A stretch of 64,000 bases of DNA. Origin: Parcubacteria group bacterium Gr01-1014_8. GTDB lineage: Bacteria; Patescibacteriota; Minisyncoccia; Phycocordibacterales; UBA2100. The stretch is taken from positions 343,898 to 407,897 of the forward strand of contig VMGC01000001.1 in assembly GCA_007376385.1 (NCBI GenBank). Direction: 5' to 3'. Every line of letters begins with the position of its first letter. The first letter of the stretch is position 1. The notes under the pieces were generated by a model. The model saw only the letters and a program-made list of their open reading frames with translations. It made no database searches and was not told the origin of the DNA. Of this stretch, positions 3,001-21,433 are shown piece after piece. The position numbers were made by a program, and so were the translations under genes.

Positions 3001-6000
3001 GGGATCGGTGCCACCTCTCCCGCAGCAAAGTTAGACGTCGAAGGTTCCGGTGCGGTCTTGACCGACATCATGGTAGGCAACTCACAGGCCAATGCAAACT
3101 TCGGTATTTCCGCGGCAGGAGTTCCCCACCTTTGGACGAACAATGCCTCGTGGCCGCTTGTGCTCGGTGTCGGTGGCGCAGAGAAAATGAGAGTGCACAC
3201 GGATGGAAACGTAGGGATCGGAGCAGGTGCAACGGGTCCCGGGGCACTCCTCACGGTTGACTCTGGTGCAGCGTCTCTCACGGACATCTTGGTCGGCAAC
3301 TCGCAAGCGAACGCGAATTTCGGAATCTCCGCAGCGGGCGTAGCCCATCTGTGGTCAAATAATTCAAGTTGGCCTCTTGCGTTCGGCATTGGAGCCGCGG
3401 AAAATATGCGAATCCACACGAACGGCAACGTGGGGCTCGGGAACACCTCCCCCTCCTACAAACTCGACGTCGCAGGGTTCATCAACACCGACCAATTCTC
3501 CGGCTACAAGCAGAACGGCACGACCATTCTCTATTCATCTTCGACGCTTGCCACGATGTTCGGCGGCTACCAGGCCGGCAATGGTCAAGTGCAATCAGGA
3601 ACCGGACTCTACAATACCGCGTTTGGCTATCAGGCGCTCTTGAGCGCCACGTCGTCTAGCAGAAGCACAGCGGTCGGCTTTTCAGCGCTCGCAAGTCAGG
3701 CGAATGCCAATGGCAACGATGCGCGTAATACCGCAGTTGGTTCCCAAGCGCTCGGCGGCACAACGTACGGTTACTACAACACAGCTGTCGGCTCTGATGC
3801 TCTCGCTGCCAACACGACCGGATACTTCAACAGCGCATTTGGCCAGGGCGCGCTCACTGGCAATACGACCGGCCGCGATAACATTGCAATTGGCTACAAT
3901 TCCGTGAGTCAAAGTACAGCCGCCCTCGAAAATATAGGTATCGGCAACTCCTCGCTTTCAGGAGCGTCGCTCACGGGGGCAGACAACATCGCTATCGGTC
4001 GGCAGGCTGGGAGCGCCATGTCGAGCGGGAGTTACAACATACTGATTGGCCAATATCTCTACAACAGCGGCACCGTCTTTACTGGCTCAAACAACATCAT
4101 CATCGGGCGCGACATCGGCTCGACCGCATCTCCCTTGGTTTCGACGACAACAAGCAACGCGCTCAACATCGGCAACTTGATTTTCGCGACCAGTCTCGGC
4201 ACGGCGGACACTCTTTCGACGGGTAATGTGGGTATTGGAACAGCGGCACCGAATTATCAACTTTCAAACAACTCCGCGAGTAATAACCTGGATTCGGGTT
4301 CCACGGGGCTCTCGACCGCAAGTAGTTTCAACTGGGCGAACAACGGCTCCGGCTACGGTGCAGGATTGTATAACGCAAGCGCCAATTCGGATGCAAACGG
4401 GCTGTTGGTAAAAATTCGCGGTACGGCCTCTACCAACAAAATTCTCTCGCTCGACACGGGCACGACGCAAGCCGGCGCGGGAACAAATGTGCTGACGGTA
4501 TTAGGAAGCGGCAACGTCGGCATTGGGACGACGAGTCCGCGCAGCGCCCTCTATTTCCAGGCGAACAGTAGCGATCCATCGTTAACATCATGGACAGGCA
4601 TAGGGACGATGCGCGCTAGTACTGGTGTAGAACTTGCGATGGGTGCAGACGATACGACACCTTTCGGCGCGTGGCTGCAAACGAAAGACAGCACAAATGG
4701 CGGTACATCCTATCCACTGCTCCTCAATCCTCTCGGCGGCAACGTTGGCATCGGGACGACTACGCCTCAAACGGCGTTGCATGTAAACGGTATTCTCGCG
4801 GCAACGCCAAGCTACGGCTTTTACTGGTACAACGGGGCAACATTCAAAGGCGCACTCAAGCATAACTCATCCAACGATAACCTTGAGATATACACCGCCT
4901 CTGATGGCAGCACGCCGCGGCTCACAGTCCAAAGTTCTTCCGGCAACGTCGGTATCGGGACGACCAGTCCCGTGTCGATACTTGCTGTTGCTGGTGCCAA
5001 TCCTGTACTTACCCTCAATCAAACGAGTAGCGGTAATGTTTCTGGCTTAAAGATAACGAATGGAGTAAATACGCTAGGCACATTTACAGTAGCAATAGAT
5101 ACAGGCGAGGTCAGGATAGGTGGTACGTCTAGCGGCGGTTATTATGATACTTTCTACGCCGATGGTTCGGAAAGGATGAGGATTACAGCAGCAGGCAACG
5201 TCGGCATCGGGACGACGACGCCGCAGTGGCTTTTGAATCCGACTTCGGCAAGCGCATCACAACTTGCCCTTTCGGCGGGGGCGGGCATCGCGCAATGGAC
5301 GTTTAGGAATGCAGGCGGGAATTTGTATCTCTCAACAACTACCGTTGCAGGAACCGCAACGACATCGATAAGCGCGCTTGAGATTGCGGGCGGAGGATTA
5401 GGAACGACAACCGTGAGAGGGCTAAACATCAGCGCTGGCGCAACATCAACGTCTAATGTGGGCTTCTCACTCACGAGCGGATGCTTTGCAACGCCCGCGG
5501 GCTGTATCTCGGGCGTTGGCGATTCTTCCATCGAAGCATTGAACGACGTTGCTGCGATGACGAAAAACTTCGGTGACTTACTGTATTGGAATGGCACAAC
5601 ATGGACTGATCTAGCAACGTCGTCGCTTGCGGTAAATTTCTCCGACCTCATTGGTTCAGCGACAGATGCACAGGTTACGAATGCGCTCACAATTTCCGGC
5701 GGCGTGATTTCGGGGACGAACACGGTGTCGGGTACGTGGAATACGACAAACACGCTTACCATCGGGAACGGCGGCGACCGCATCGACGTCAATTCGAGCG
5801 GATGGGATGTGACGGACAGCGTGATTTCAGGCGCAACCTATCAAGGCAACACGATTGGCACCACCTACGGAGGCACAAATGCGACAGGTTTCAGCAGCCA
5901 TGCGCTTCTTGCATTTAACGGTACGAGCATCGTCGCAACGTCTACTATCGGCTTTCAGTCATTTAATGCGACATCAACCACTGCGACGTCGACCATTGCT

Positions 6001-8856
6001 GGCGGCCTTGCAGTCGAGACCTCCGGCCTCGTGTACGACTACTCGACCAACCGCGTCGGCATTGGGACGGCGAGCCCTTCCAACAAATTACATATTGCAT
6101 CATCCGCGAATGACTCAACGCTTTTCATACAGCAAACGTCTGGCACACAGCGAGCTGATATCCGGATCGACAACGACGGCGGCTATATGCTTATCGGCCG
6201 CGAAAACAGTGCTGGCGGATCACTTGCGGTCGGTTCGACCGGCTATTTTGGCGTCATGAATGTCAACAATGCCTACGGTCTGCAATTTGGTACCAACAAC
6301 ACCGTCCGAGCGACGATCGACTCCTCCGGCAACGTCGGCATCGGGACGACGAGTCCAGCGACTTCGCTTTCAGTATCGGGAAGCGGGTACCTCACTGGCG
6401 CGCTTGGCGTAGGCGCGGTCGCGACGGGCTTCACCAACCTTCTCGTCAATGACAACTCAAACACTGCGCACAATAACGATGAGGGTATTGTTGTGAAAAA
6501 TACAAACACTGGCAGTTCTGCCGGCGCTAGCATCAATCTTCGAAACGACGGCACATATCATGGATTCATGCAGATGAATTCTGGGGCAAACACATCATTG
6601 GCGGGAGCAAATAGTTTCAACATCGGTGCTGAGCACAACATTAATTTCGGATTCATCACCAATGATGCGCTTCAGATGACATTGAATACCACCGGTCTCG
6701 GCATCGGGAACACCTCCCCCTCCTACAAACTCGATGTCGCGGGGTTCATCAACACCGACCAATTCTCCGGCTACAAGCAGGCGGGGAATACTATACTGTA
6801 TGCGTCGAGCACGAATGCCACGGTATTTGGTGGACAAGGCGCAGGAAGCGCGATGCAAACGTCTGGAACCGGTGCGTACAACACCGCGTTTGGGTACGGT
6901 GCCCTTACTACAGCGACATCGTCTAGTAGAAGCACTGCAATTGGATTTAATGCACTCGCCAACCAAGCGAACAGTAACGGCAACGACGCACGCAACACGG
7001 CCGTCGGTTCCGACTCTTTGGCGGCAACTACGTACGGCTACTACAACGTCGGCGTCGGCGCCTCGGCGCTCACCGCCAACACGACAGGCGCTTTCAACGT
7101 GGCACTTGGTGTCGGGGCTTTGCAGACGGCAACATCCACGAACAACGTGACTGCCATCGGCTACAACGCGCTCGGCGCTATGATTTGTTGCGGCCCGGCA
7201 GGGACGACGCCGGCAAATGTCGTGGTAGGCCACCAAGTCGCTCGTCAAGCGACGACTGCCTACGGTATTACAGGAATCGGGTATGGCGCCTTGGATTCGC
7301 TCACGACCGGACACGACATCGTGGCACTTGGATCGCAGGCAGGGCATATGGTCACGACTGGCACTAACAGTATATTCCTTGGCGATCTCTCCGGCTTCAA
7401 AGACAGTGCCGGTGCGAACACCGCCATCACGGGCGACAACAATATCATCATCGGCAATAACCAGCTCATGATCCCGAACGCCGCCGGCTCCAATCAACTC
7501 AACATCGGCAACCTCATCTTCGGCACCAGCCTCTCAACCGGCGCGACAGTTTCGACCGGCAACGTCGGCATTGGGACGACGAGCCCACGTTCGATTCTCC
7601 ACGCTGTGGCCGGTGCTTCGGGAGTTTTGCCCAACGCAGGCACGACCTTCACTATGGAGAGCAACACGGCCAACTACTTGAGCATGCTCACAGCGAGCAA
7701 CGCCGCAAACGGAATTCTCTTTGGTACGCCGACGAGCGCAATCGATGCCGGCATTCTCTACAACAGCAACGGTTCGGCACGAGATTTGCAGTTCCGCACC
7801 GGCGTCAACAACACGCGGATGACGATTGATTCTACCGGCAACGTCGGCATCGGGACGACGACGCCGTTTCGCAAACTTTCTATCACGGATGCAGTATCGA
7901 CCGCACAGCAAGCGATCGCGTACGACTCGACGCGCTGGACTGACCTCCTTACAGACTCTGTTGGGGATCTCACCATCAATCCGCAAGGCGACGATGTGTT
8001 CTTGAATGCGGACAATCTTTGGGTGTGTACCGGCGGCTCGTGTCCGAGCGGGACGCCAGCAGGGACGGGTAATTTGATCGTTGAAACGAAATTGGGCGTG
8101 GCCAGTTCGACACCGTTCGCGACGCTCGGTGTGAAGGGTTCTGCTGCATCGACGGCATATACGTTCATGACAACCAACAGTTCCGATTCTCCGACGTTCA
8201 ACATCCAAGATAACGGCAATGTGGGTATTGGTACCACGACGCCCACGAAACAATTTTCCATCTCGAGTCTCCTCTATGTCGGTGCAGGCGGTGCAACAGG
8301 AATGGGAACAGCGACATCGACTTTCCAAGGTGACATCAAGATAATTGGTAAACTTGATGTCGGTACGATTGACCCGGTCTATACAATAGACGGCACGAAG
8401 TATGCGACGTATGGTCATTCAACCGTTGGTATCAAAGAAGAGGTAACGGCAAAACTGGCAGTCAACGAGTATGACGAAGCTCGAGATTTGTATCGAACAA
8501 CAATTCGTTTCGATGAGTTGGAAAAGGGAAGCGACCTTTGGCTTTTCTATGAGATCACTCGATTCGGACTTGAATGGGAGCATCTCGTCGTGAACTTGAC
8601 GCCGGCATTCGACGGCCGCGTGTTCTACGAAGAAGATATCGTCGAGAACTCTCTGACAATATACGCCGACAAGTCCGGCTTTGTTTCTGCGCGGCTCATC
8701 GCGGACAGATTCGACGCAGAAACGTGGCCGAACATTCGTCCTGACCAGGACGGAAATACCGAAGGCACGCACAATATAACTTCGAAATTGCCGGGAGGGG
8801 TGCTCCGAGCGGCAGCTACAGCAACCGAAGCCGTCTCATCGTGGTTCAATGAATAA
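1..8856 (+). CDS. Giant repetitive surface protein (more than 2941 aa; 5' end lies outside the window). It has about 30 'GNVGIGTTSP...KL.V'-type repeats, resembling phage-tail-fibre or adhesin-like repeats.
   Basis: The ORF is open from nt 1 (no in-frame stop upstream of the annotated TTG at 31) to the TAA at 8854-8856. The NVGIGT motif recurs throughout. A 'SIEDLNDVAAMTENYGDLLGWNGSTWTD' module occurs three times (nt ~420, ~1680, ~5520). There are internal tandem and segmental duplications. Composition is Thr/Ser/Gly/Asn-rich. Confidence 0.8.
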   Translation, partial: SGGVPTWGTDLTSGGGADGTWSTTTSQVSGTLINYPNNASDIVAIGSTATTSAEYWFDPNTTIAYLSGKVGISTTSPYSKLTLWGSASLFEAVNTSSTTIFSIGQSGATTTNLGISGIASSLLKTTSTGGVVAAIPDTDYLNTASSIELLGDVAAMTENYGDLLYWNGSAWADLATSSLGIAISDTTGTLAVARGGTGQTTFSSSQLLYGNGTNALSSVATSSLSAGTGVTFSGTAGSLVGGTALTINTPWTISGNNIYNNNIANAAIGTSTPYATTTIWGNTASKIFEVVANASSTVFSVAQSGATTTNLGITGVTNSLLKTTSTGGVVAAVAGTDYATLSQTFGKAWEIDGNGFTGFLAPTTTQKVWIGQASSTLLSVNGPAYFGSTATSSFSTAGVLTLATDLAVTEGGTGASTLTGLLQGNGTSAFTAITDSSTVGQILRVTGASTYAWGALNLADTDAITGTLPISNGGTNNTTYSTNALLYFDGTSITATSTRPLYVGAINATTTATSTFAGGISVLNFAQTGTATSTLANGLTLTGGCVMVNGNCISPVGNSSIEDLNDVAAMTENYGDLLGWNGSTWTDFATTSLFTGSNGQMLAYANGGWTGVATTTAGTGLTYTGSAFNVDLGTSISAAEIADGDHGDFTYTSGVAAIDANAVTLGTDTTGNYVATLADSGGGTLTISNSGSETAAVTASLNLGNANIWTGKQNFFGSASSTLFSANWLKVGQTASTTFDSAGNATIGGTLNVTGQTTLATSLTGLLKATAGVVSSATEGTDYLSNALRDWSVQGNGYLAPTTTRGIIVVASSTIGAGGQATGLTISGGATTTGNAYFAGNVGVGTAAPSQKLQVVNGAIDINTDDQFLYFGSGDAGIRESGANLKFETYTGAALTEKMRITGAGNVGIGTTTPATLLSIAGTSGLFASTTATSTFQGGGINLLTAAGNTGCFAVNGTCLSNTASGIVGSGTTGQFPYYAANGTTLTATSTLFVSTASNVGIGATSPAAKLDVEGSGAVLTDIMVGNSQANANFGISAAGVPHLWTNNASWPLVLGVGGAEKMRVHTDGNVGIGAGATGPGALLTVDSGAASLTDILVGNSQANANFGISAAGVAHLWSNNSSWPLAFGIGAAENMRIHTNGNVGLGNTSPSYKLDVAGFINTDQFSGYKQNGTTILYSSSTLATMFGGYQAGNGQVQSGTGLYNTAFGYQALLSATSSSRSTAVGFSALASQANANGNDARNTAVGSQALGGTTYGYYNTAVGSDALAANTTGYFNSAFGQGALTGNTTGRDNIAIGYNSVSQSTAALENIGIGNSSLSGASLTGADNIAIGRQAGSAMSSGSYNILIGQYLYNSGTVFTGSNNIIIGRDIGSTASPLVSTTTSNALNIGNLIFATSLGTADTLSTGNVGIGTAAPNYQLSNNSASNNLDSGSTGLSTASSFNWANNGSGYGAGLYNASANSDANGLLVKIRGTASTNKILSLDTGTTQAGAGTNVLTVLGSGNVGIGTTSPRSALYFQANSSDPSLTSWTGIGTMRASTGVELAMGADDTTPFGAWLQTKDSTNGGTSYPLLLNPLGGNVGIGTTTPQTALHVNGILAATPSYGFYWYNGATFKGALKHNSSNDNLEIYTASDGSTPRLTVQSSSGNVGIGTTSPVSILAVAGANPVLTLNQTSSGNVSGLKITNGVNTLGTFTVAIDTGEVRIGGTSSGGYYDTFYADGSERMRITAAGNVGIGTTTPQWLLNPTSASASQLALSAGAGIAQWTFRNAGGNLYLSTTTVAGTATTSISALEIAGGGLGTTTVRGLNISAGATSTSNVGFSLTSGCFATPAGCISGVGDSSIEALNDVAAMTKNFGDLLYWNGTTWTDLATSSLAVNFSDLIGSATDAQVTNALTISGGVISGTNTVSGTWNTTNTLTIGNGGDRIDVNSSGWDVTDSVISGATYQGNTIGTTYGGTNATGFSSHALLAFNGTSIVATSTIGFQSFNATSTTATSTIAGGLAVETSGLVYDYSTNRVGIGTASPSNKLHIASSANDSTLFIQQTSGTQRADIRIDNDGGYMLIGRENSAGGSLAVGSTGYFGVMNVNNAYGLQFGTNNTVRATIDSSGNVGIGTTSPATSLSVSGSGYLTGALGVGAVATGFTNLLVNDNSNTAHNNDEGIVVKNTNTGSSAGASINLRNDGTYHGFMQMNSGANTSLAGANSFNIGAEHNINFGFITNDALQMTLNTTGLGIGNTSPSYKLDVAGFINTDQFSGYKQAGNTILYASSTNATVFGGQGAGSAMQTSGTGAYNTAFGYGALTTATSSSRSTAIGFNALANQANSNGNDARNTAVGSDSLAATTYGYYNVGVGASALTANTTGAFNVALGVGALQTATSTNNVTAIGYNALGAMICCGPAGTTPANVVVGHQVARQATTAYGITGIGYGALDSLTTGHDIVALGSQAGHMVTTGTNSIFLGDLSGFKDSAGANTAITGDNNIIIGNNQLMIPNAAGSNQLNIGNLIFGTSLSTGATVSTGNVGIGTTSPRSILHAVAGASGVLPNAGTTFTMESNTANYLSMLTASNAANGILFGTPTSAIDAGILYNSNGSARDLQFRTGVNNTRMTIDSTGNVGIGTTTPFRKLSITDAVSTAQQAIAYDSTRWTDLLTDSVGDLTINPQGDDVFLNADNLWVCTGGSCPSGTPAGTGNLIVETKLGVASSTPFATLGVKGSAASTAYTFMTTNSSDSPTFNIQDNGNVGIGTTTPTKQFSISSLLYVGAGGATGMGTATSTFQGDIKIIGKLDVGTIDPVYTIDGTKYATYGHSTVGIKEEVTAKLAVNEYDEARDLYRTTIRFDELEKGSDLWLFYEITRFGLEWEHLVVNLTPAFDGRVFYEEDIVENSLTIYADKSGFVSARLIADRFDAETWPNIRPDQDGNTEGTHNITSKLPGGVLRAAATATEAVSSWFNE

Positions 8857-8977: not shown

Positions 8978-9664
8978 TCACGGTGCCGCCGATTCCACGC
9001 GGAAGTCGAGCCATTCCGAGACCTGCGATTTAAAGTCGAGAGGCGAATCAAAGTACTCCGACAGCGCTGCGGCGTTCACGATGCGGCTCTCCAGACGTTT
9101 CTCACGAGTGTAATCGTGAAAGCTCGACCAACGGTATCCGTCGAGGAATTTTTCCGCCGCGCGCCGGTTTGCGATGCCGGTTTCTTTCCAAGTCGGCTCG
9201 ATGAGCTTGACGGGGTTCAGATGGATATACGAAACGAGGTATTTGAAGTATCGGTCGTCTGCCACGTGCGTCGCCTTATATTTCCCCTGAAAAAGGACGC
9301 CGCTTCGTTTTTGGCGGGTGTTAAAATACATCGTATACCCGGTTTGGAGCTTCTGCATGAATCGGGAAATACCGCCGTTCCTAATCTCACGAAGCATGAG
9401 GTGGAAGTGATTCGGCATGAGGCAGTGCGCGCATATGTCCACGAGCGGTTTTCCCCGATCAAGCGAGAGAAGATGGGGAAGAGAGGTCTGGATTTCGTTG
9501 CTGATGTGCACGGTGTTCTCGCCGTTTGCAAGAAACAAAAGCGCGAGAAAGCGCTTATGGTCGGGTACAGAGGTAAAGATTTTCCGTTTTTCAGTGCCGC
9601 GGTTGTAGACATGATACGTCTCATCGACAGTAAACGGTATGCGTCTCATCTTCTGTATTTTCAC
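8978..9664 (-). CDS. IS200/IS605-family Y1 (HUH) transposase, REP-associated tyrosine transposase (RAYT)-like
   Basis: HUH motif 'HCLMPNHFHLML' and catalytic Tyr motif 'YIHLNPVK'. The gene is flanked by REP-like repeats. Length is 228 aa. Confidence 0.75.
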   Translation of the reverse strand: MKIQKMRRIPFTVDETYHVYNRGTEKRKIFTSVPDHKRFLALLFLANGENTVHISNEIQTSLPHLLSLDRGKPLVDICAHCLMPNHFHLMLREIRNGGISRFMQKLQTGYTMYFNTRQKRSGVLFQGKYKATHVADDRYFKYLVSYIHLNPVKLIEPTWKETGIANRRAAEKFLDGYRWSSFHDYTREKRLESRIVNAAALSEYFDSPLDFKSQVSEWLDFRVESAAP

Positions 9665-9676
9665 TCGCGGTGCCTA

Positions 9677-9712
9677 AATATCAAGGCCCATATCAAGGCC
9701 CGACCTCGATGG
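9677..9712. repeat. REP-like repeat copy 2
   Basis: aaatatcaaggcccatatcaaggcccgacctcgatgg. Same orientation as copy 1. Confidence 0.55.
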
Positions 9713-9765: not shown

Positions 9766-9800
9766 AATATCAAGGTCATATCAAGGTCGGACCTCGGGGG
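9766..9800. repeat. REP-like repeat copy 3
   Basis: aaatatcaaggtcatatcaaggtcggacctcggggg. Confidence 0.55.
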
Positions 9801-9806
9801 TGGTGG

Positions 9807-10064
9807 TTGCGCCTCGCCGCGAGGCGCTACGACACAGAAAAGTGGCCAAATCTACGGCCGGATCAAGACGGCTATACAACGGGCACGCATGTAATTAGTT
9901 CGAAGCCAAAGGCAGGCGAGCAGGCGAGGGATGAGAGCAAAGTGTCGCATGTATCGGCTGTAGTAACTGCGACCAGCGCTATCGCGCAGATCTCGTCATT
10001 CGCGACAAGTACCATTGAATTTGCGACCAGCACATTCTTCAAACTGCTAGCATGGTTTCAGTAA
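9807..10064 (+). pseudogene. Fragment encoding a diverged copy of the giant protein's C-terminal motif (…EKWPNLRPDQDGYTTGTHVISSKPK… vs …ETWPNIRPDQDGNTEGTHNITSKLP…). Likely a remnant or alternative 3' cassette.
   Basis: Protein-level similarity of ~25 residues to aa ~2890-2915 of ORF 31..8856. The nucleotide sequence is diverged. No upstream N-terminal domain. Confidence 0.35.
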
Positions 10065-10149
10065 ACGATATTTAAAGTTCAAGATGATTTAAAAAATGAA
10101 AAGTCCAAAACAGAGACAGAGATGCAATTCATGAGTATACTTATTGACA

Positions 10150-10707
10150 ATGCGTAAGCGAGATTTCTTCTACATCGCACTTCTCTGCTTTCTGCCTGCA
10201 GCTGCCTTCGCGGTGACCATGACCGTAAACACTGTCGTGACGGGCAATGTAAGTGTAGTCGGAGCGCTCTCGAAGGGTTCCGGTACGTTCATGATTGATC
10301 ACCCGCTTGACCCGAAAAATTCGCTCCTGTACCATTCGTTCCTCGAATCTCCTGACGTCAAGAACATCTACGACGGTGTCGCGAATCTCGACAAGAACGG
10401 AGAGGCCACGATCGCGTTACCAGGTTATTTTCTTGCACTCAACAAGGATTTCAGGTATCTCGCGACATCAATGAGCGGGCCTATGCCGAATCTGCATCTC
10501 ATGCGCGGAGTTCGGAGAGAGTGGTTTGTAGGCGACCCTACATTCAGGATAGCTGGGGGCGTACCGGGCGGCACTATCTCCTGGCAGGTAACGGGTATAC
10601 GCAAGGATCCTCTCATTGTCGCGAATCCTATTATAGTCGAAGTTGAAAAGGGTGCTGAAGCACTGATATTAAAGGGGGAGTGTCTCTTTGAACTCCTTTG
10701 CAGATGA
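10150..10707 (+). CDS. Secreted protein, paralog A of a three-gene family sharing a conserved ~120 aa C-terminal domain (FxIDHPLDP…LYHSF(V/L)ESP(D/E)VKN(I/L/F)YDG…SWQVTGIR(H/K)D)
   Basis: Signal peptide 'MRKRDFFYIALLCFLPAAAFA'. The ATG is the 3rd codon of the listed ORF. The C-terminal domain is alignable with ORFs 10688..12028 and 12019..12750. Confidence 0.7.
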   Translation: MRKRDFFYIALLCFLPAAAFAVTMTVNTVVTGNVSVVGALSKGSGTFMIDHPLDPKNSLLYHSFLESPDVKNIYDGVANLDKNGEATIALPGYFLALNKDFRYLATSMSGPMPNLHLMRGVRREWFVGDPTFRIAGGVPGGTISWQVTGIRKDPLIVANPIIVEVEKGAEALILKGECLFELLCR

Positions 10708-12028
10708 ACATATAATTATCATGCACACAAAACTTTCGACATATTCGTTGTTTTGGTGGGCTCTTGCACTCATCGTCGGCATTTCTTTTTTGCTTGCGCT
10801 TCTCTTTCCTGTAGAGAGATTGTCAGCCGCGCCCACGGTAAAAATCTATCTTGATTCAGGAACATCATTCGTCATCCCCGGAGATTGGAACTCTTCAAAC
10901 AATTCTATCGAAGTTATCGGCGGCGGCGGCGGCGGCGGTACTCCAAGCGCTCTTTGTAGCGCCGGAGGAGGAGGCGGCGCATATTCAAAAGCCGCGAACG
11001 TCTCGCTTACGGCCGGTGCGTCGGTTACCTACGCTATTGGTGATCGCGGTATCGAACAGACGGCAGGGGGTGATACGTATTTTTGTAATTCGACGTTGAA
11101 CTGCGCTTCCATTTCTGGTACTGCCGTGCAGGCAGGTGCGAAGGGCGGAAATGGCGCCAGCGGTGGCACTGGAGGATCTGGCGGTGCATCCGCAAGCGGC
11201 GTTGGAAGCACCAAATTTAGTGGGGGAAATGGCGCCGGAACTGGAAGCAGCACTGGCGGCGGCGGCGGAGGTGCTGCTGGACTAAATGGTGCAGGTAATA
11301 ACGGCTCGGGAACAACTGGCGGTAGTGGCGATGCTGGAAACGGCGGTGCAGGTGGGACCGCAAATAATCCCGGTGGTGCGGGTACCGAATACGATTCTGT
11401 ACACGGTTCCGGCGGAGGCGGTGGCGGAGCAACGGGCGCGGGCGGTGGCGCAGCGGGAGGGAATTTTGGGGGCGCCGGCGGCGGCGGATGCGCATCTGGA
11501 GGCATCGGTAAACGAGGGATGATTGTTCTTACGTACGTTTCGTCTGCGACTCTTACACTTTCCGGAAATGTTAAATTCGCCGGCAATTTAACCATCACTA
11601 GTACTTTAGCAAAAAGCTCCGGCACATTTGTGATTGACCATCCGCTCACGCCGCGCACGCATCTTTTGTACCACTCATTTGTTGAATCACCGGAAGTGAA
11701 GAATCTCTACGACGGTATTGCAAAACTTGACGCGCAGGGCGAGGTAGCAATCGAGCTTCCCGATTATTTTGAAGCACTGAACAAAGATTTCCGCTATCAA
11801 TTCTTTCCTCACTTCGAAGCGATGCCTGGTCTCTATGTGAAGCAAGAAGTGAAGGACAACTCATTCATCATAGCTGGAGGAAAGCCGGGCGGAGAAATAT
11901 CGTGGCAAGTCACGGGTATCCGCCACGATGCGTTTATTCTCGCAAATCCGATTATCGTTGAGGTCCCGAAAACAAACTCGACTGTCGTGCCGAGGGGTAT
12001 GTGTCTGTTTGAGCCGTTATGCAAATGA
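10688..12028 (+). CDS. Secreted/membrane-anchored paralog B. It has a long Gly-rich (GGN repeat) low-complexity middle region and the family C-terminal domain.
   Basis: TM/signal 'LFWWALALIVGISFLLALLF'. About 230 aa of G/A/S/N/T low complexity. C-terminal 'FVIDHPLTPRTHLLYHSFVESPEVKNLYDG…ISWQVTGIRHD'. Overlaps paralog A by 20 nt. Confidence 0.7.
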   Translation: MNSFADEHIIIMHTKLSTYSLFWWALALIVGISFLLALLFPVERLSAAPTVKIYLDSGTSFVIPGDWNSSNNSIEVIGGGGGGGTPSALCSAGGGGGAYSKAANVSLTAGASVTYAIGDRGIEQTAGGDTYFCNSTLNCASISGTAVQAGAKGGNGASGGTGGSGGASASGVGSTKFSGGNGAGTGSSTGGGGGGAAGLNGAGNNGSGTTGGSGDAGNGGAGGTANNPGGAGTEYDSVHGSGGGGGGATGAGGGAAGGNFGGAGGGGCASGGIGKRGMIVLTYVSSATLTLSGNVKFAGNLTITSTLAKSSGTFVIDHPLTPRTHLLYHSFVESPEVKNLYDGIAKLDAQGEVAIELPDYFEALNKDFRYQFFPHFEAMPGLYVKQEVKDNSFIIAGGKPGGEISWQVTGIRHDAFILANPIIVEVPKTNSTVVPRGMCLFEPLCK

Positions 12029-12750
12029 GCGCTGTTCAGAGTGCGACGGTGTGTGGCGTATTGTCACTTGTGTTGGCGATTCTTTTCCCCATGCGAACTT
12101 TCGCGGGCTACGCTGAAAGTGCGTATTACTCGCAGTCGACCTACTACTCGCAGTCGACCTACTACTCGCAGTCGACCTACTATTCACAGGGAACATATGT
12201 GACGACGTTTAGCAATAACGCGACGGCGGGAACTAATTTCACCGTCGCGGGCACGATTAATAAAGGTTCCGGTTCATTCGTCATCGACCATCCGCTCGAT
12301 CCAAAAAATAAGCTGCTCTATCACTCGTTCGTTGAATCTCCTGACGTGAAGAATTTCTACGACGGTATAGCAACGCTCGACACAAAGGGCGAAGCAGTCA
12401 TTCGGCTTCCCGCGTATTTTATGGCACTCAACAAAGAATTTCGGTACCAACTAAAACCCATTGGCGGGCCGCAGCCTGATCTGCACATTAAGGATGAAAT
12501 CTCAGGAAATCGCTTTACGATTGCGGGTGGCGGGCCACGCGGGCGCGTATCGTGGCAGGTCACGGGGATCCGTCATGATCCGTACATCGAAGCGAATCCT
12601 ATCGAGGTCGAGGTAAAAAAAGGTACAGATCCCGAGAAAAGCGTCTTCGTGCTCTATGGAGGGTTTTTGCACGAGGACATTTATCCGCAGACGATCCAAC
12701 CCGCGATATCTACATATATGAGAAAGATACTTAGTTTGTTCGGCAATTGA
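12019..12750 (+). CDS. Secreted paralog C with a (YYSQST)n repeat and the family C-terminal domain
   Basis: Signal peptide. A perfect 18-nt tandem repeat encodes YYSQST x3-4. C-terminal 'FVIDHPLDPKNKLLYHSFVESPDVKNFYDG…VSWQVTGIRHD'. Confidence 0.7.
   Translation: MQMSAVQSATVCGVLSLVLAILFPMRTFAGYAESAYYSQSTYYSQSTYYSQSTYYSQGTYVTTFSNNATAGTNFTVAGTINKGSGSFVIDHPLDPKNKLLYHSFVESPDVKNFYDGIATLDTKGEAVIRLPAYFMALNKEFRYQLKPIGGPQPDLHIKDEISGNRFTIAGGGPRGRVSWQVTGIRHDPYIEANPIEVEVKKGTDPEKSVFVLYGGFLHEDIYPQTIQPAISTYMRKILSLFGN
12124..12195 (+). repeat. 18-nt tandem repeat (tactactcgcagtcgacc) x3 plus degenerate flanking copies, coding YYSQST
   Basis: Direct reading of sequence 12121-12195. Confidence 0.8.
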
Positions 12751-12800: not shown

Positions 12801-13991
12801 ATGAAAAGGTCCACAGTGCTTTACGCCGTGTCCGCTCTTGTTATTGGAGGTTTTCTTGCGTACTGGTTTGTTCCTCTCGGGCCTGCATATTCTGAAGCAA
12901 ATACCATCGCGGATGGAGCATCAAATTTTAAAGAGCTCGCGGCGCGCTTCGGCGATCTCGCTCGCGAAAAGGGAGGAGCATATGCATTCGAGGTGTTGAA
13001 ACGCGCTGAATTGCCGCCGAATACTGACCTGCATTTGTTGGGACATGAGGTCGGAAACATTCTATACGAACAGAAAGGTGTCGATGGTATTGCGGATTGC
13101 ACGCAGGATTTTAGAAACGCCTGCTCGCATGCAATTGTTATCGGCGCTTTGAATGAGTTCGGCGGTGAGGCTGCATTACCTCTCATAAGCGATGCGTGCA
13201 AAAAGGCTCCAGGCGGAAGCGGAGCGTACACGATGTGTTATCACGGACTTGGCCATGGCGTGTTCGCGTTCTACAGCTATGACCTTTCAAAAACCGCTGA
13301 ATTTTGCAGAAAGACCGGGACTCCCGAATACCACGAACGAGAATATGTTGAATGCGTCGGAGGTTCGGTGATGGAATTGATGGGAGGAGGCGGGCATGAT
13401 AGGGAGGCGTGGCTTGCGGCGAGGGAGAAATATCTCGACCCGCATTCACCGCTCTCGCCGTGTATGGACAGCGCTGTGCCGGAAAGAGCGAAAATAATGT
13501 GCCTTACATATCTGACACCTCGTCTGTGGGAATTAGCAGGTATTGATATGGGAAACCCCTCACCTCATATGTTTGCAACTGCGTTCTCGTATTGCGATGC
13601 GATCCCTCGCTCTCGCCCAGAACTTCGCGGTGCCTGCTACGGAGGGTTTGGCAAAGAATTCTTTCCGCTCGTAGCCTCGCGCGATATTCGCGATGATGTA
13701 TCGTATTCAGACAGGCAACTCTCTACCGTCATCGATTGGTGCAGTTTTGCAGGGGATGTCGAAGGAACGTATGCGTGTGTGGGGGATGCGGTTGCGTCCG
13801 CATTCTGGGGTGGGGAGAAAGATCCGAAAACAGCGTTTAGGCTCTGCGGCGCAGCAGATGGAACGTTGCAAGATGCATGTTTCGAACGACTCGCCGATGA
13901 AGTGACGATGTATATGCGAGGAGCAGAGAAAGATGAGCTATGCGCGCAGATCCCCGCACGTCTCGAGACCAAATGTTCAAAAAGTAGTTAG
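12801..13991 (+). CDS. Membrane-anchored Cys/His-rich repeat protein, family member 1 (motifs CSHAIVIG, CYHGLGHGV, CYGGFGKEF)
   Basis: N-terminal TM 'LYAVSALVIGGFLAYWFVPL'. Periodic Cys-x2-(H/G)-G-x-G-(H) repeats. Paralogous to 8 other ORFs in 13-31 kb. Confidence 0.65.
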   Translation: MKRSTVLYAVSALVIGGFLAYWFVPLGPAYSEANTIADGASNFKELAARFGDLAREKGGAYAFEVLKRAELPPNTDLHLLGHEVGNILYEQKGVDGIADCTQDFRNACSHAIVIGALNEFGGEAALPLISDACKKAPGGSGAYTMCYHGLGHGVFAFYSYDLSKTAEFCRKTGTPEYHEREYVECVGGSVMELMGGGGHDREAWLAAREKYLDPHSPLSPCMDSAVPERAKIMCLTYLTPRLWELAGIDMGNPSPHMFATAFSYCDAIPRSRPELRGACYGGFGKEFFPLVASRDIRDDVSYSDRQLSTVIDWCSFAGDVEGTYACVGDAVASAFWGGEKDPKTAFRLCGAADGTLQDACFERLADEVTMYMRGAEKDELCAQIPARLETKCSKSS

Positions 13992-13992
13992 T

Positions 13993-15036
13993 ATGCGGTT
14001 TCTGATGTGGATGGGCGGAGGAGTGCTTGCCGCTCTTTTTTCGTTTTTCCTGTTCCATTCATTGTATGCTGGGGGCGATCTATTCGTGCCGCATGAGTAC
14101 GCACCATTCGAAGAACAACGTGCGTATTGGCAACATCTCATCGAAAAAGAAGGTGCCGAAAACGCTCTCACTGCATTTTCTGTCCGAGTCGGATCATTAT
14201 CTCTGAATACGCAGCATCAATTGGCTCACTCGTTCGGCGCTGCGCTTTTCCAGGCGGAAGGTATTGGTGGCATTTTCATATGCGATGCGCGATATTCGTT
14301 TGGTTGTTTCCATCAGTTCTTAGGAGATGCGATACAGGCGCTTGGTATCGAGCGTGTTCCGGATCTGAACACACGTTGCTTTGATGCGTCATCCGTAAGT
14401 CCCATTTCTTGTACGCACGGCATTGGTCACGGGGTCCTCGCCTCGCTTGGGTATGATGATATAGCTCTCCAAAAAGGGCTCGAGATATGCAAAGGTCTGC
14501 CGGGAACGGAGCCCATTGGAGGATGTTATGGAGGCATTTTTATGGAATACAACGTACGCACAATGCTCGCAGAGCAGGCGACGGTACGAGAGTACGAAGG
14601 AAATGTGTATGCGCCATGCGATTCGCTTGCGGCTGAATTTGTTCAAGGTTGCATATATTGGCAGCCACAATGGTGGCTTGTGACAGTGCTTGATGGGGTC
14701 TCTTCGGAAAAAGCGTATGCGAAAATGGGTTCATATTGCCGAGAATTCGCAAAAACACCGGAGTTATTGCGTGCATGTTTTGAAGGCTTGGGAAATATTG
14801 TCGAAGATGAGGCGGAGTATGAGCCATTGCAGGCGCGGAGGCTTTGTGACGCCGCAGGCGCGGGTACTCTGAGCAGCGTATATTGTCGCTCCGTCGGCGC
14901 GAATCATTTTGGCATTGATGGCGGGGAAGATCAGGCTGTGTTGGTGTGCGAAGATCTTCAAGGAGACAAGAGAGCATATTGTATGGCGTATGCAAAAAAT
15001 GAGATAGGCCTCGCGCCGGAATTACGTGAATTATGA
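13993..15036 (+). CDS. Membrane-anchored Cys/His-rich repeat protein, family member 2 (CFHQFLGD, CTHGIGHGV, CYGGIFME)
   Basis: Start taken at the internal Met 'MRFLMWMGGGVLAALFSFFLF' right after the upstream stop. The listed ORF begins at 13933 overlapping the previous gene. Confidence 0.6.
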   Translation: MRFLMWMGGGVLAALFSFFLFHSLYAGGDLFVPHEYAPFEEQRAYWQHLIEKEGAENALTAFSVRVGSLSLNTQHQLAHSFGAALFQAEGIGGIFICDARYSFGCFHQFLGDAIQALGIERVPDLNTRCFDASSVSPISCTHGIGHGVLASLGYDDIALQKGLEICKGLPGTEPIGGCYGGIFMEYNVRTMLAEQATVREYEGNVYAPCDSLAAEFVQGCIYWQPQWWLVTVLDGVSSEKAYAKMGSYCREFAKTPELLRACFEGLGNIVEDEAEYEPLQARRLCDAAGAGTLSSVYCRSVGANHFGIDGGEDQAVLVCEDLQGDKRAYCMAYAKNEIGLAPELREL

Positions 15037-16166
15037 ACCGTTTATTTCTCGTAGTAATTGTGTTTATAGCGTTCGCTTTTATGGGATGGCAGGTGTGGGG
15101 CGATGTGGACCCATTTGCTGAGTGTACCGGAGTCCATCGCAACGAATGTCTGGGCGCTGTCCTCAAAGAGATGGCAGATGTGCAGGGGATCGCGGCTGCG
15201 TTCGAGTCATTTACAGAACTTTACGACGAGCCGGATTTCACGAAAGATTGCCATCCAATAGTGCACGAAATGGGAAAAGGCGCATATGAGCGGTACAAAC
15301 GAGGAAAACCACTCGAGGCGGTTCATGAACTTTCCTATTGCAGCTACGGTTTTTATCACGGATTTTTGGAAGCCATGGTACCGGATACTGGAGACCCCAA
15401 AAAGGCTCGTGAGTTGTGCGATAAGTTACAAGATGGCGTGACGGACGGCAGATCAGTTATCGGTCCTTGTCTTCATGGTTTTGGTCATGGGGTGACAGAC
15501 GGCACGAGGCCAGAGCGTTGGGGGAGTTTTGAGACCATGTCTGAGCCTTCGCTCGAGATATGTTCGTCTATCGCGCGACGTGATGATGAAAAAATGCTCT
15601 GTGCAGGCGGAGTTTTCAACGCGATCTCTATCATGTCGCTTTACAAGAAAAATGGGCTTGTCATTGATAAGGTGCATCCATACGCTCCGTGCGAGAAGCA
15701 AACAGATGTGCGTGTCCGTGAGGCTTGCTTTCGGAATTTTCACCCGACAGTTTCTCATATAAATCATGAGCATTTTTTGCTTGCAGCGCACCAGGTTGAG
15801 GCATTAGAGAAGGATGCGGATGCAATTCCCGCGATGGAGAACCTTGCGATCTATCAGTCAAGGAGGATGACCGAAGAATACACGGACCCATATATCGCTG
15901 CCTTTTGTCATCGAGTCCAGCCGCGGTTGCAGAACATGTGCGTAGAAGGTTTCGCGGTAGGTTTTCTTATCTTTGGCACACCAGGCGAAGAATATGAACG
16001 CGCTCTCACGTTCTGTCAGAATACCGAACTTCGCGGTGAACACGAGGAGCATTGCCTCAGACGAGTCATACAGTCTTCGAAGCAGCAATATTCAAGGGAC
16101 GTGTATAAAAAAGTATGCATGAAAGTTCCGAGAGCGTTTCAGTACCTTTGCGAAGAACCCGCGTAA
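15033..16166 (+). CDS. Membrane-anchored Cys/His-rich repeat protein, family member 3 (CSYGFYHGF, CLHGFGHGV)
   Basis: N-terminal TM 'LFLVVIVFIAFAFMGWQVW'. Family motifs. 4-nt overlap with the upstream gene. Confidence 0.65.
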   Translation: MNRLFLVVIVFIAFAFMGWQVWGDVDPFAECTGVHRNECLGAVLKEMADVQGIAAAFESFTELYDEPDFTKDCHPIVHEMGKGAYERYKRGKPLEAVHELSYCSYGFYHGFLEAMVPDTGDPKKARELCDKLQDGVTDGRSVIGPCLHGFGHGVTDGTRPERWGSFETMSEPSLEICSSIARRDDEKMLCAGGVFNAISIMSLYKKNGLVIDKVHPYAPCEKQTDVRVREACFRNFHPTVSHINHEHFLLAAHQVEALEKDADAIPAMENLAIYQSRRMTEEYTDPYIAAFCHRVQPRLQNMCVEGFAVGFLIFGTPGEEYERALTFCQNTELRGEHEEHCLRRVIQSSKQQYSRDVYKKVCMKVPRAFQYLCEEPA

Positions 16167-16230: not shown

Positions 16231-17739
16231 TCATCGGACTTCCAACAACCATGACAGTGCGTTATTCGCGTACGCGTCGCATGCGTCTAGCTCTTCGAAT
16301 CCAAGAGCCTTGCAAATGACGTCGTTCTTGAAGCCCGCAAATTCACGCCAGTGTGTCGCACGCATAAAAAGAGCTCCTAGAAGGCAATTTTGTTGGTCGT
16401 TCGATCCTGGGCCCATCTGACATTTTTCTACTACTTCTGAGTCAGTGAGATTCAGCCATGGGAGAGCGGTGTTGAATCCGATGCCAGTGAAGCACTTATC
16501 CCTGAATCGTGATGGGGCGCGGAGGCATCCCTTGATCGACTCTTCGCTGAAATAACCAGGGCTCCAAACGGTGGATTGATTCAAGTAACAGATCTCAAGC
16601 ATTGGATCGTCTCCAGCAAGTTCGAGGGCATCGCACGGAAAATCAGGCCGTGTTTTATCGAGCCATGTTGTCGTATGTCCGCGTACGCCGAATCCAAGGG
16701 TGACGAATACATTTTCCATGAATGCGCCGTGATAGCACATCTTTTTCCCACGTTCGTACGTGACAAGATCGCGGCACTTTTGCAGCGACAAGGGAAGGTC
16801 ATAATTGTGATACACCATGAGCCCATGGCCGATGACGTGCTCGCAGAAGATGCCTCGCAGCGAGTCAGCATTCTCTTTTAAACACCCCGCCGCATACTTT
16901 TTTACGGTCTCATCGTCTCCGACATTTCCAAGTGATGATTCGATGACACCGTGGTAAAAACCGAATTGGCATCTTGTGTCTATCATCTGTTCATCGAGTA
17001 TTGAGAGGCCGTTCAGCGCGTATGCGATACGGCCTAAAAAGTGTGCCTCCGAATGACACTCTCCCACCGCTACCTGCGAACCTGGATTATCCGGACGCTG
17101 TGAAGGATCCATCGAATCCTTGACCAGTTCATCGAGCATTTTTTCGTATCCGAACACGCGCATCCAATATTCGAGTTCAGCGTCAGTCCTGCTCACCTCT
17201 ATCATATTCAATTTTTCCAACACCGATACTCCAGATCTCGGAAAAAATCTGAAATAGAAATGCATCAGCGACGCATGAAATTTTCGAGCAGGAGATAGCG
17301 CCCCATAACGAGGCAGCTCGGATGGATCTCCGCTCCCCGAATCCTTGACTAGTACCGTACCTGAACGTTCCGGGTCCATGTGGTCATGAAAATTCCACGT
17401 TCCTGCTTGTTTGAATTTAAAGCGGAATGATGCGTCTTGCAGCAGTTCGTGGCAAGAATCGAATCCTTTATACGCGTCAGTGCCGCACTCACGGATATCC
17501 GACCCGGGATATTGTGTATGCGTGGGATGTACGTCAGATGCAATCCAATGAGGTTCGGTGTCTTCATTCACGAAAAGGACGCTTTCTCCTTGGACTATCT
17601 CAACCTGCGACGGTTCAAAACCGCTCGCCGTCATGCGAATCGTAGTGTATGTAGTTTCTGCCGAGAGTGTCTGCGGCAGTGCGCAAAGAATTGATAGCAG
17701 GACGAGAGATGCGTTGGAAGCTGCTGTTTTTTTTGTCAT
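16231..17739 (-). CDS. Secreted protein with an N-terminal cupredoxin-like His-cluster domain followed by the Cys/His-rich repeat domain, family member 4 (CQFGFYHGV, CEHVIGHGL, CYHGAFMEN)
   Basis: Signal peptide 'LVLLSILCALPQTLSA'. N-terminal domain '…VHPTHTQYPG…WNFHDHMDPERSGTVLV' is alignable to ORF 26769..27161 and the N-terminus of 28447..29997. Confidence 0.65.
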   Translation of the reverse strand: MTKKTAASNASLVLLSILCALPQTLSAETTYTTIRMTASGFEPSQVEIVQGESVLFVNEDTEPHWIASDVHPTHTQYPGSDIRECGTDAYKGFDSCHELLQDASFRFKFKQAGTWNFHDHMDPERSGTVLVKDSGSGDPSELPRYGALSPARKFHASLMHFYFRFFPRSGVSVLEKLNMIEVSRTDAELEYWMRVFGYEKMLDELVKDSMDPSQRPDNPGSQVAVGECHSEAHFLGRIAYALNGLSILDEQMIDTRCQFGFYHGVIESSLGNVGDDETVKKYAAGCLKENADSLRGIFCEHVIGHGLMVYHNYDLPLSLQKCRDLVTYERGKKMCYHGAFMENVFVTLGFGVRGHTTTWLDKTRPDFPCDALELAGDDPMLEICYLNQSTVWSPGYFSEESIKGCLRAPSRFRDKCFTGIGFNTALPWLNLTDSEVVEKCQMGPGSNDQQNCLLGALFMRATHWREFAGFKNDVICKALGFEELDACDAYANNALSWLLEVR

Positions 17740-17767: not shown

Positions 17768-19348
17768 TCAGGCTACTTCGCGTTTTCTGATGATGAGGAA
17801 CACGATCGAGAGGATGGGAAGTATGAGCACATATTCTCCTAGAAGTGAGTACAGGGTTTTCGTGTCTTTGAGCGGCACTGATGCTGCGAGTATAGAAGGA
17901 GCTGAGTCAGAGCGCATCTCCACTTTTCCGCGGTTTGTGACGATGGAAGATGCCAGCCCGTTTCCTGCGATAGCTATGTAGCGATCATTTTCGACCGCAC
18001 GTACCTTTCCTAGGGAAAGTACGAGGTTGTCTACCAGATGCGATCCATGGAACCACGCCTGTCCGGCTGGATTTACGAATACCCGTGCTCCGCCCTGGGC
18101 AAGTTTCTGGTACAGATTTGGCGAGAGAATATCCGAACAGAAAAGCGCTCCGACTTCTGTTCCGTTGATATGTGCAGGGAACAGTTTTGTTCCTGAAGCA
18201 ACGGAACGTTCCCTCATTGTGCTCTGCTCTGCATCAGACACACCAATAAGGCGGAGCAGCATGGCAAAGAGCCAGGGCGTATATTCTCCCTGTGGCACCA
18301 AGAATATCTTCCGGTATGTTTCAGGCATCAAGGTGCCGTTTTCGTACATACGCATCTGGACGTATCTTTCAGAACCCGTTCTCACCGGACCTGAGTCAAT
18401 GAATGTAACGGCGTGATCGGGAAAAACTAACTTCGCGAATTCAGTCGGGTCTTCGTTACTATGAACGAAAAAATCTGTCGCTTCCGGAAAGACAATGATA
18501 TCCGGCGGCTCATTTTCTTTTGCCCATATTCGTATGTATTCTGCGACTTCGCGTGCATGTTTTCGCTTGACCTCTAACGAATACAGCGAGGTGACAGGCA
18601 TGCTTGTTGAAACGAGTGCGACACGCACCGATCCAGATTCATTTTGAAAAGTCCAACTCGGAAGAGAATAGGCTCTATCAAGAGCCGCAAGAGTCAACGC
18701 TCCGGAGAGGATAAGTGCGAACACGAGCCCTCGTTTTCTCGCGTTTTCATACTGAAAAATTACGTGATACAGAGAAAAGCCGAGAAAGACCGCAAGAAAG
18801 GTCAGTATGTATATGCCGCCAATGGAAGCGGATCGAAGAAAAGGAGAAAAATTAGTAAGAGAATATCCGAGCATCGTAGGTGAGAAGTGCGGGCCGGAAA
18901 ATGAAAGGTCGCGTGCTGTGAGTATGGCAAATCCCCACATTTGCGCGTATTGCAATACTGTCCAAAGAGAAGCGGCAAGCAGTGCGGCATAGAAACCTGA
19001 GCGCTTGGATCGGACAAAGCCAGCCGCAAAGAGTGAGAAAAAGACGGCGAGGACGAGAGTGACCATGAGCCATGAGAACCCTACGAATATGATCCCTTTC
19101 CACGGAGGAGAACCAGTCCAGTCGAGTGGCAACACGTCCCAGAACCATGCTATGGCAGTACCGCTGTAGGCAAAGCCAAAGAGAAGTCCAAGTATTGACG
19201 CATCTCGGTATTGTTTCTCTTGCAGGCGGTGCAATACGTGAGCGAAGGGAATGAGTCCGAATACGGATACCAGCCATATGGACGGGAACAGTATTCCCGA
19301 TGCAGCGATAACGCCTGAGAATATTGCAAGCAAACCAAAGACTACCAT
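17768..19348 (-). CDS. lnt: Apolipoprotein N-acyltransferase-like protein (N-terminal polytopic membrane domain plus C-terminal CN-hydrolase/nitrilase domain)
   Basis: Multiple N-terminal TM helices. CN-hydrolase signature with Glu in 'IIVFPEATDF' and Cys in 'GALFCSDILSP'. About 526 aa, typical of Lnt. Confidence 0.6.
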   Translation of the reverse strand: MVVFGLLAIFSGVIAASGILFPSIWLVSVFGLIPFAHVLHRLQEKQYRDASILGLLFGFAYSGTAIAWFWDVLPLDWTGSPPWKGIIFVGFSWLMVTLVLAVFFSLFAAGFVRSKRSGFYAALLAASLWTVLQYAQMWGFAILTARDLSFSGPHFSPTMLGYSLTNFSPFLRSASIGGIYILTFLAVFLGFSLYHVIFQYENARKRGLVFALILSGALTLAALDRAYSLPSWTFQNESGSVRVALVSTSMPVTSLYSLEVKRKHAREVAEYIRIWAKENEPPDIIVFPEATDFFVHSNEDPTEFAKLVFPDHAVTFIDSGPVRTGSERYVQMRMYENGTLMPETYRKIFLVPQGEYTPWLFAMLLRLIGVSDAEQSTMRERSVASGTKLFPAHINGTEVGALFCSDILSPNLYQKLAQGGARVFVNPAGQAWFHGSHLVDNLVLSLGKVRAVENDRYIAIAGNGLASSIVTNRGKVEMRSDSAPSILAASVPLKDTKTLYSLLGEYVLILPILSIVFLIIRKREVA

Positions 19349-21407: not shown

Positions 21408-21433
21408 ACACTATTTACTCAATTGTTGGCACA

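Follow-up and report, generated by a model that had tools for sequence, protein, structure and literature searches.

A conserved trio of secreted paralogs with a phage tail-fibre-like C-terminal domain suggests a three-part surface knob in Patescibacteria

In the genome of Parcubacteria group bacterium Gr01-1014_8, three consecutive open reading frames (ORFs) on the + strand, called here genes A, B, and C, each lead from a hydrophobic, signal-like start into the same C-terminal domain. They lie in a stretch of 64,000 nucleotides (contig VMGC01000001.1, positions 343,898 to 407,897), which we call the window and whose own numbering is used below. The locus raises two questions: what is the shared domain, and why is it encoded three times side by side? 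An earlier note on this DNA had described the genes as tandem secreted paralogs with hypervariable middles. We find three old types that occur in a conserved order across Patescibacteria, and a domain with homology to the C-terminal ends of certain phage tail fibres. The feature is real and not an artefact; its organization suggests a three-part surface knob, and we hypothesize that the three products form a heterotrimer with a role in attachment. Throughout, L-numbers designate the loci compared and P-numbers the homologous proteins (P0001 is TSC87233.1). The genes and their parts are the following.

10150-10707 (alternative TTG start at 10144), + strand: gene A, type A, 185 amino acids (aa); signal peptide, neck, and fibre-end-like beta-sandwich, with no middle
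10216-10704, + strand: conserved C-terminal domain of A; neck TMTVNTVVTGNVSVVGALSKGSG plus sandwich
10721-12028, + strand: gene B, type B, TSC87234.1; hydrophobic N-terminus, Gly_rich_2 domain, and fibre-end-like domain ending in CLFEPLC
10886-11536, + strand: glycine-rich domain of B, resembling Pfam PF21722 Gly_rich_2, a relative of the glycine-rich domain of ALK/LTK
11555-12025, + strand: conserved C-terminal domain of B, from the comparison of invariant columns and tblastn within the window
12025-12750 (alternative ATG at 12019), + strand: gene C, type C, 241 aa; signal peptide, Tyr-rich tract, domain, and a hydrophobic tail of 24 aa
12109-12198, + strand: Tyr-rich tract of C, YAESAYYSQSTYYSQSTYYSQSTYYSQGTY, holding a perfect 18-nt tandem repeat at 12127-12182
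12199-12675, + strand: conserved C-terminal domain of C, delimited in the same two ways as that of B
12676-12747, + strand: tail specific to type C, DIYPQTIQPAISTYMRKILSLFGN; tails of 24-39 aa are present in all type C proteins

The product of gene A, which consists of a signal peptide and the domain without any middle, as had been noted, is 100% identical to TSC87233.1 of Parcubacteria group bacterium Gr01-1014_8. By tblastn within the window, the domains of A, B, and C match one another with E-values of 1e-50 to 1e-56 (51-59% identity over 149-178 aa), and no fourth copy is found elsewhere in the 64 kb. Seventy-five columns are invariant across the three. The shared domain had first been put at ~120 aa; it is indeed common to all three proteins, but the conserved unit measures ~155 aa and comprises a neck of ~20 aa followed by a sandwich of ~135 aa.

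Searches of Pfam-A, NCBIfam, and the PDB sequences gave no match to the domain, apart from chance matches to carbohydrate-binding modules (CBM) in the N-terminal region, and nothing was found in PHROGs except a weak match of the window C protein to phrog_17490 (E 0.0018). The earlier reader had not recognized it either, and it does not fall into any well-characterized family; we found no description of the domain or of the cassette in the literature. Homologs beyond this locus, for which a profile search had been proposed, turned out to be abundant. An exhaustive profile search placed the domain in 14,975 clusters at 50% identity (E<=1e-3), 6,216 of them at E<=1e-30, making it one of the commoner unannotated domains. 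In the 150 representatives listed, which range from 140 to >1,100 aa, it stands at or near the C-terminal end. Public names of homologs are "hypothetical protein" and occasionally "trimeric autotransporter adhesin" (JGI; P0006 and P0090 only). For the trio the latter label is unfounded, as Pfam features of the YadA type are absent: neither the anchor nor the head or stalk repeats were found, and the Pfam scan returned nothing for A and C and Gly_rich_2 alone for B.

Scanning one genome per species, we found the domain in Patescibacteria, Bacteroidota, Acidobacteriota, Chloroflexota, Planctomycetota, Verrucomicrobiota, Zixibacteria, Omnitrophota, and others, the homologs in other phyla being still 50-60% identical to the window copies. 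In these other phyla it closes long signal-peptide-bearing proteins that contain "GIGT"-type fibre repeats, Laminin_G_3, DUF7483, or Gly_rich_2.

Phages, too, have relatives of the domain. By tblastn, eight cultured-phage records matched it with E-values of 4e-7 to 5e-4 and 31-33% identity over 67-73% of the domain. It corresponds to the C-terminal end of Prochlorococcus phage P-SSM2 gp295, a tail fibre of 1,170 aa, and to that of Arthrobacter phage Sonali gp19, which is encoded immediately 3′ of the tape-measure and minor-tail-protein genes. The two phage sequences can be aligned end to end with the bacterial domain, with which they share the pattern GSFxIxHP...HSFxExP...SWxVxGxR. The top Foldseek matches in BFVD include a minor tail protein of Arthrobacter phage Mufasa8 (32% identity, E 1e-7) and a P-SSM2 tail-fibre-like protein (29% identity). 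The IMG/VR locus L081 encodes, directly 3′ of tape-measure and baseplate-hub genes, a protein of 478 aa that closes with a 45%-identical copy; this protein matches phrog_17490 ("unknown function") with an E-value of 1e-11.

More distantly, the domain resembles the C-terminal beta-sandwiches of tailspikes and tailocin fibres, with moderate similarity and 14-19% identity (the Pam1 tailspike 7eea, the R2/R1 pyocin fibres 6cl6/6cu2/6cxb, the K1 lyase 7w1c, and AP22 gp53 4mtm). The fold is a common one, and the trio domain has no Pfam match to the families of these proteins. In the confident monomer model, the blocks of lowest confidence are the first ten residues (mean 73) and the HSFxESPD block (mean 71), the latter being the most conserved motif of the domain. 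We would conjecture that this low confidence fits a segment shaped by subunit contacts or by a bound ion. Taken together, these results show a beta-sandwich fold and homology to the domain at the C-terminus of certain phage tail fibres, and the identity of the domain as a relative of phage fibre ends is well supported. The receptor-binding module proposed among the candidate roles in the earlier note fits this homology to the distal end of tail fibres.

A prophage or tailocin origin of the trio itself was considered and rejected, since phage structural genes are absent nearby. The neighbors of the trio are cellular; its GC content resembles that of the remainder of the window.

Why three copies? 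In Patescibacteria loci, the domain usually occurs as three adjacent genes, and all 13 complete triads show the order A-B-C with signatures specific to each type:

Type A: strand motif RYLAT and a loop longer by 6-9 aa (in window A, longer by 6 aa, RGVRREWFVGDP)
Type B: strand motif RYQFF and usually a C-terminal CxxxxLC (Cys pair)
Type C: strand motif RYQLK, a Tyr-rich tract before the domain, and a tail of 24-39 aa after it

These discrete characters, which are independent of any tree, sort perfectly by position in 13/13 cases. By best match, the first gene is always A-like, the second usually B-like, and the third usually C-like. A neighbor-joining tree likewise resolves three clades with one member per genome, and the Patescibacteria copies separate from those of other phyla. 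The A and B types are usually bare domains without any add-on. These comparisons indicate that the trio is a set of three old types, conserved in order across Patescibacteria, and not the outcome of a local duplication.

The operon-like, end-to-start arrangement of the genes had been noticed before and is borne out. The TGA stop codon of B (12026-12028) overlaps both candidate start codons of C, ATG 12019 and ATG 12025; the gene was called at the latter, which makes an ATGA overlap. The ends of A and B overlap only if B begins at TTG 10688 (446 aa, as in NCBI) rather than at ATG 10721 (435 aa, as in ENA). A consensus scan found no terminator-like sites on the + strand between A, B, and C, and gave a promoter match:

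10113-10141, + strand: sigma-70-like promoter match GAGACA-17-TATACT directly 5′ of gene A, from the consensus scan only

The signal or transmembrane (TM) start ascribed to each of the three proteins is also there. Read directly from the sequence, all three N-termini are hydrophobic and signal-like (A, ...AAAFA/VT; C, ...RTFA/GY), and the 22-residue hydrophobic stretch at the N-terminus of B could be an uncleaved anchor.

The middle of B had been taken for ~230 aa of GGN low complexity. It is glycine-rich, but it is better described as a Gly_rich_2/ALK-GRD-like domain than as plain low complexity, judging from profile comparisons. Residues 67-283 of B match Gly_rich_2 with 21.3 bits (E 3e-4; cut-off 24.3) along profile positions 12-225 of 226, and several relatives score above this cut-off (P0123, 24.4; P0129, 43.5; P0169, 67.6; P0148, 91.4). 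As BLASTP of the B middle against clear members of the family was uninformative owing to composition adjustment, phmmer was used instead and gave E-values of 4e-62 to P0123 and 3.5e-51 to P0129, with a high compositional bias. One Gly_rich_2 relative of B also matches ALK_LTK_GRD (PF12810), below the cut-off of that family. The likeness to Gly_rich_2 and ALK_LTK_GRD is limited to the middle of this one paralog. The domain is missing from most B-type proteins and is elsewhere fused to other paralog types. Its presence in some genomes only, on differing paralog types, makes it a mobile add-on rather than a stalk.

In C, the perfect repeat behind the (YYSQST)n tract was found as reported: the 18-nt unit occurs in 3.1 copies with 100% matches and encodes YYSQST. 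Every type C protein has a Tyr/Gln/Ser/Gly-rich tract, whose unit and length vary, from ~17 to ~90 residues. The type C protein of L010 carries YYSQST in 5.1 copies beside a 4.8-copy array of the YYAQST type, written in codons that differ from those of the window; the same peptide in different codons points to a conserved peptide whose DNA arrays are homogenized lineage by lineage. These differences are evidence for a recurrent expansion and contraction of the tract. The idea that the spacers act as length- or phase-variable stalks survives in part. The C tract does vary in length between genomes, but the B domain is not a stalk, and the 18-nt repeat, which lies within the coding sequence, preserves the reading frame, so that slippage alters length and not on/off expression. 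Slipped-strand on/off phase variation is hence not supported, as a change in repeat number neither shifts the frame nor alters the promoter.

The exact sequence of window C was not found in the protein collection, an exact search of JGI metagenomes with the repeat flanks gave 0 matches, and the nearest metagenome relatives have at most 68% identity over the full domain. An independent short-read assembly (L094, a Logan contig from SRR8863434) ends inside the 18-nt repeat, at about window position 12156; this break is compatible with an assembly ambiguity induced by the repeat or with copy-number heterogeneity.

The tail of window C has a hydrophobic moment of 0.58, a value reached by 5% of shuffles, and is not a TM helix. 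A general amphipathic-helix tail in type C was dropped as an explanation, the moment being significant in some genomes only. The type C ortholog of L018 (7033-7785) ends in a clear TM helix followed by RRRG (PLPSVVVLGAAVLLIVWLRRRG), and the others end in a short Phe/Leu-rich tail. The L018 ending suggests that the type C tail docks to the membrane or to a partner. The trio was also considered as substrates of the type IX secretion system (T9SS) with its C-terminal domain, of LPXTG sorting, or of PEP-CTERM sorting, and this was rejected: no Pfam match to Por_Secre_tail or CHU_C was found, and the window C tail is, as said, no TM helix.

Two neighboring genes bear on how the trio might work.

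12801-13991, + strand: d1, which completes the conserved four-gene cassette; Cys/His-rich product with a TM helix at the N-terminus
31-8856, + strand: giant fibre-like ORF of 2,941 aa, rich in "GNVGIGTTSP" repeats, 5′ of the trio

A d1-family gene lies directly 3′ of the trio in each of the 13 Patescibacteria loci with data, close orthologs being 42-63% identical; d1 has no match in Pfam, NCBIfam, or the PDB sequences. The giant ORF has PHROG tail-fibre matches and a weak PDB-sequence match to the Bdellovibrio mosaic adhesive trimer (MAT) fibre Bd2133 (E 0.006); it matches no Pfam family, and its first start codon is not followed by an obvious signal peptide. A relative of its C-terminal region lies 5′ of the trio in nine loci and is absent from that position in L004.

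We propose that A, B, and C are exported by the Sec pathway, each ending in a neck and a beta-sandwich. The domain would trimerize into a knob, as do the phage fibre and tailspike ends that it resembles, and the three proteins would co-assemble 1:1:1 into a heterotrimer on the cell surface. All three distinct types have been retained side by side, their stop and start codons overlapping, which makes a single A·B·C heterotrimer the most likely product. Within it, A would supply the longer loop, B its C-terminal Cys pair (with, in the present genome, a glycine-rich binding domain as well), and C the N-terminal Tyr-rich tract of variable length together with the hydrophobic tail. The membrane protein d1 would be a likely partner or anchor, and the knob itself would probably serve in surface attachment or recognition. 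Whether the trio indeed co-assembles as one such surface knob with an attachment or recognition role is, in our judgment, evenly balanced. A bolder form of the proposal, in which an obligate A·B·C knob, a three-gene cellular counterpart of a phage fibre end, is docked to d1 as a Patescibacteria-wide surface organelle for host attachment, and the C tract is a tunable tether that may be post-translationally modified or cross-linked, we regard as doubtful.

Known systems offer partial parallels. In C1q, three tandem paralogous genes, A, B, and C, encode a 1:1:1 heterotrimeric globular head. Like the trio, it has side-by-side paralogs that share a terminal sandwich, which may serve as an analogy only; no homology was detected or is claimed. 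The homologous phage domain (P-SSM2 gp295, Sonali gp19, Mufasa8, PHROG 17490; 29-33% identity) differs from that of the trio in its setting: the trio domain stands nearly alone behind a signal peptide, in three specialized copies, on a cellular chromosome. It is not the C-terminal end of a long fibre encoded in a virion tail module, and the N-terminal parts of B and C are short or not fibre-like.

The closest characterized cellular analogue is the MAT fibres of Bdellovibrio, which, like the trio, are encoded by a cell and carry signal peptides; Bdellovibrio attaches to other bacteria. These phage-tail-fibre-like surface fibres have a conserved, beta-rich N-terminal domain of ~130 aa, a beta-helical trimeric shaft, and a variable C-terminal tip, and beta-sandwich tips can replace the S74 chaperone (PMC10769870). 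In contrast, the trio is shaftless and spread over three genes, and its C-terminal domain is the conserved part. The only link of the window to MAT fibres is the weak one of the giant ORF to Bd2133.

Several observations weigh against a heterotrimeric recognition knob. Bootstrap values for strict monophyly of the types are low (A 42%, B 30%, C 18%, compared with 82% for all Patescibacteria copies). This is as expected for only 152 slowly evolving columns, and it means that the three-type scheme leans mainly on position and on the indel and tail signatures. Some Patescibacteria loci, such as L009, have a single copy, so the domain can function outside a trio. A surface location, and a role for d1, are suggested by signal peptides and gene order only. 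Lastly, an identity of 50-60% across phyla is above that of usual receptor-binding tips and would fit assembly or anchoring better than variable recognition.

The alternatives were weighed against this background. Each paralog might form a homotrimeric or monomeric knob of its own, giving three independent adhesins, co-transcribed and no more, whose separate binding functions would come from their differing add-ons (none, the Gly-rich domain, the Tyr-rich tract). This we find unlikely, for it would leave unexplained both the presence of one gene of each type in a fixed order in 13/13 complete loci and the fact that the A and B domains are usually bare. The high conservation across phyla, with its many invariant polar residues, would suit an assembly cap or chaperone, in which the domain would be the C-terminal folding nucleus of trimeric fibres, comparable in function to the S74 intramolecular chaperone or to phage tail-fibre assembly proteins, with the free-standing trio working in trans on the giant fibre. 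Its position at the very C-terminus of a wide variety of fibre-like proteins, the giant fibre gene 5′ of the trio in nine loci, and the MAT fibres, whose non-S74 beta-sandwich tips stand in for an S74 chaperone (PMC10769870), would all agree with it. However, the domain gives no Pfam match to Peptidase_S74 (PF13884) at E<=0.1, and inspection of the A sequence finds no "SD" dipeptide in its domain and so no SDxxxK motif. In addition, the giant gene is not beside the trio in some loci (L004), and a transient chaperone would need neither its own signal peptides nor type-specific appendages, which makes this explanation distinctly improbable.

The same conservation would also fit an invariant ligand, as expected if, as the earlier note had offered among its candidates, the domain anchors proteins in the envelope by binding a constant component of the cell's own envelope (peptidoglycan or another wall polymer) and so displays whatever is fused to its N-terminus. 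The N-terminal partners, which are lectin-like or binding domains (Laminin_G_3, DUF7483, Gly_rich_2), agree with this. We nevertheless give envelope anchoring only a slim chance. The A and B types have nothing to display, a Pfam scan found no similarity to LysM, SLH, CWB, or a sortase signal, and phage homologs carry the domain at the C-terminal end of tail-fibre or tail-region proteins, the end of a tail fibre that points away from the virion. Finally, the sandwiches might polymerize like a pilus, with an N-terminal strand or the C-terminal Cys pair linking neighbors. Bacillus Ena appendages, encoded by three tandem paralogs, would be the model for this reading, which we consider very improbable.

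Further genes around the trio were recorded. The window holds at least six paralogs of a Cys/His-rich family, at 12801-16166 (+), 16231-17739 (-), and 20208-22549 (+), with an N-terminal TM helix, repeated CxHGxGHG-like motifs, and no match in Pfam, NCBIfam, or the PDB sequences. The ORF at 16231-17739 (-) has an N-terminal Cupredoxin_1 domain (27.9 bits), and small, weakly cupredoxin-like ORFs adjoin the trio in L011, L014, and L097. An apolipoprotein N-acyltransferase-like gene (LNT_N and CN_hydrolase) lies near the cassette at 17768-19348 (-); L095, too, has a CN_hydrolase gene close to its trio.

On the 5′ side, the start of an orphan ORF at 9807-10064 (+) repeats the last ~35 aa of the giant ORF (RYDTEKWPNLRPDQDG vs RFDAETWPNIRPDQDG), and this ORF is probably what remains of a second fibre gene. 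In L003, two giant-type fibre genes stand in tandem 5′ of the trio. At 8978-9664 (-) lies an IS200-like/REP-associated tyrosine transposase (RAYT) gene (Y1_Tnp, 35.7 bits; NCBIfam RAYT below cut-off), flanked by the REP-like direct repeats ATATCAAGG(C/T)C, present twice, at 9678-9701 and 9767-9788. L007 has a 41%-identical RAYT in the corresponding place, with the giant fibre gene on one side and the trio on the other.

Other loci have neighbors of their own. A pair comprising YcaO and a nitroreductase-type dehydrogenase sits between the B-type and C-type genes in L095 (9537-11566, -), and the same is seen in L096; in L009, a YcaO and dehydrogenase pair (2244-4182, -) lies beside the single domain gene. 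The domain proteins that flank the pair in L095 have a TM segment, a leader-like "...DVEKVFSD...LTGG", and then Cys/Ser followed by the Tyr-rich tract (GGSCSYGQGYYY, GGCCCYGQAYYY); pairs of this kind beside genes with such tracts are seen in two lineages. This YcaO context hints at a possible azole-type modification. No YcaO gene is present in the window. Outside Patescibacteria, a small secreted protein that contains a shared "Y.L.G..GQP..G....Y.L.GGFW" module is often the product of the gene directly 3′ of the domain gene, as seen among L024, L042, L048, L061, L063, L064, L065, L068, and L078. By eye, the downstream proteins of L048 and L078 end in an apparent T9SS-type sorting motif. Downstream genes with sorting domains of the T9SS (CHU_C, Por_Secre_tail) occur in L037 and L043, and one with a Peptidase_S74 domain in L047.

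A large part of bacterial diversity falls within Patescibacteria, whose cultivated members live attached to other microbes; to our knowledge, little is known of their attachment molecules apart from type IV pili. Surface modules derived from phage tail fibres are, as such, already known, and the novelty here lies in the unexplored three-gene organization. If the trio proved to be an obligate heterotrimer, we would know of no described precedent for such a subfunctionalization of a viral fibre end that is normally homotrimeric. A four-gene cassette built on a phage-fibre-end domain and kept across several classes is a testable candidate for a surface recognition structure, and naming the domain or solving its structure would annotate thousands of fibre-like proteins now called "hypothetical".

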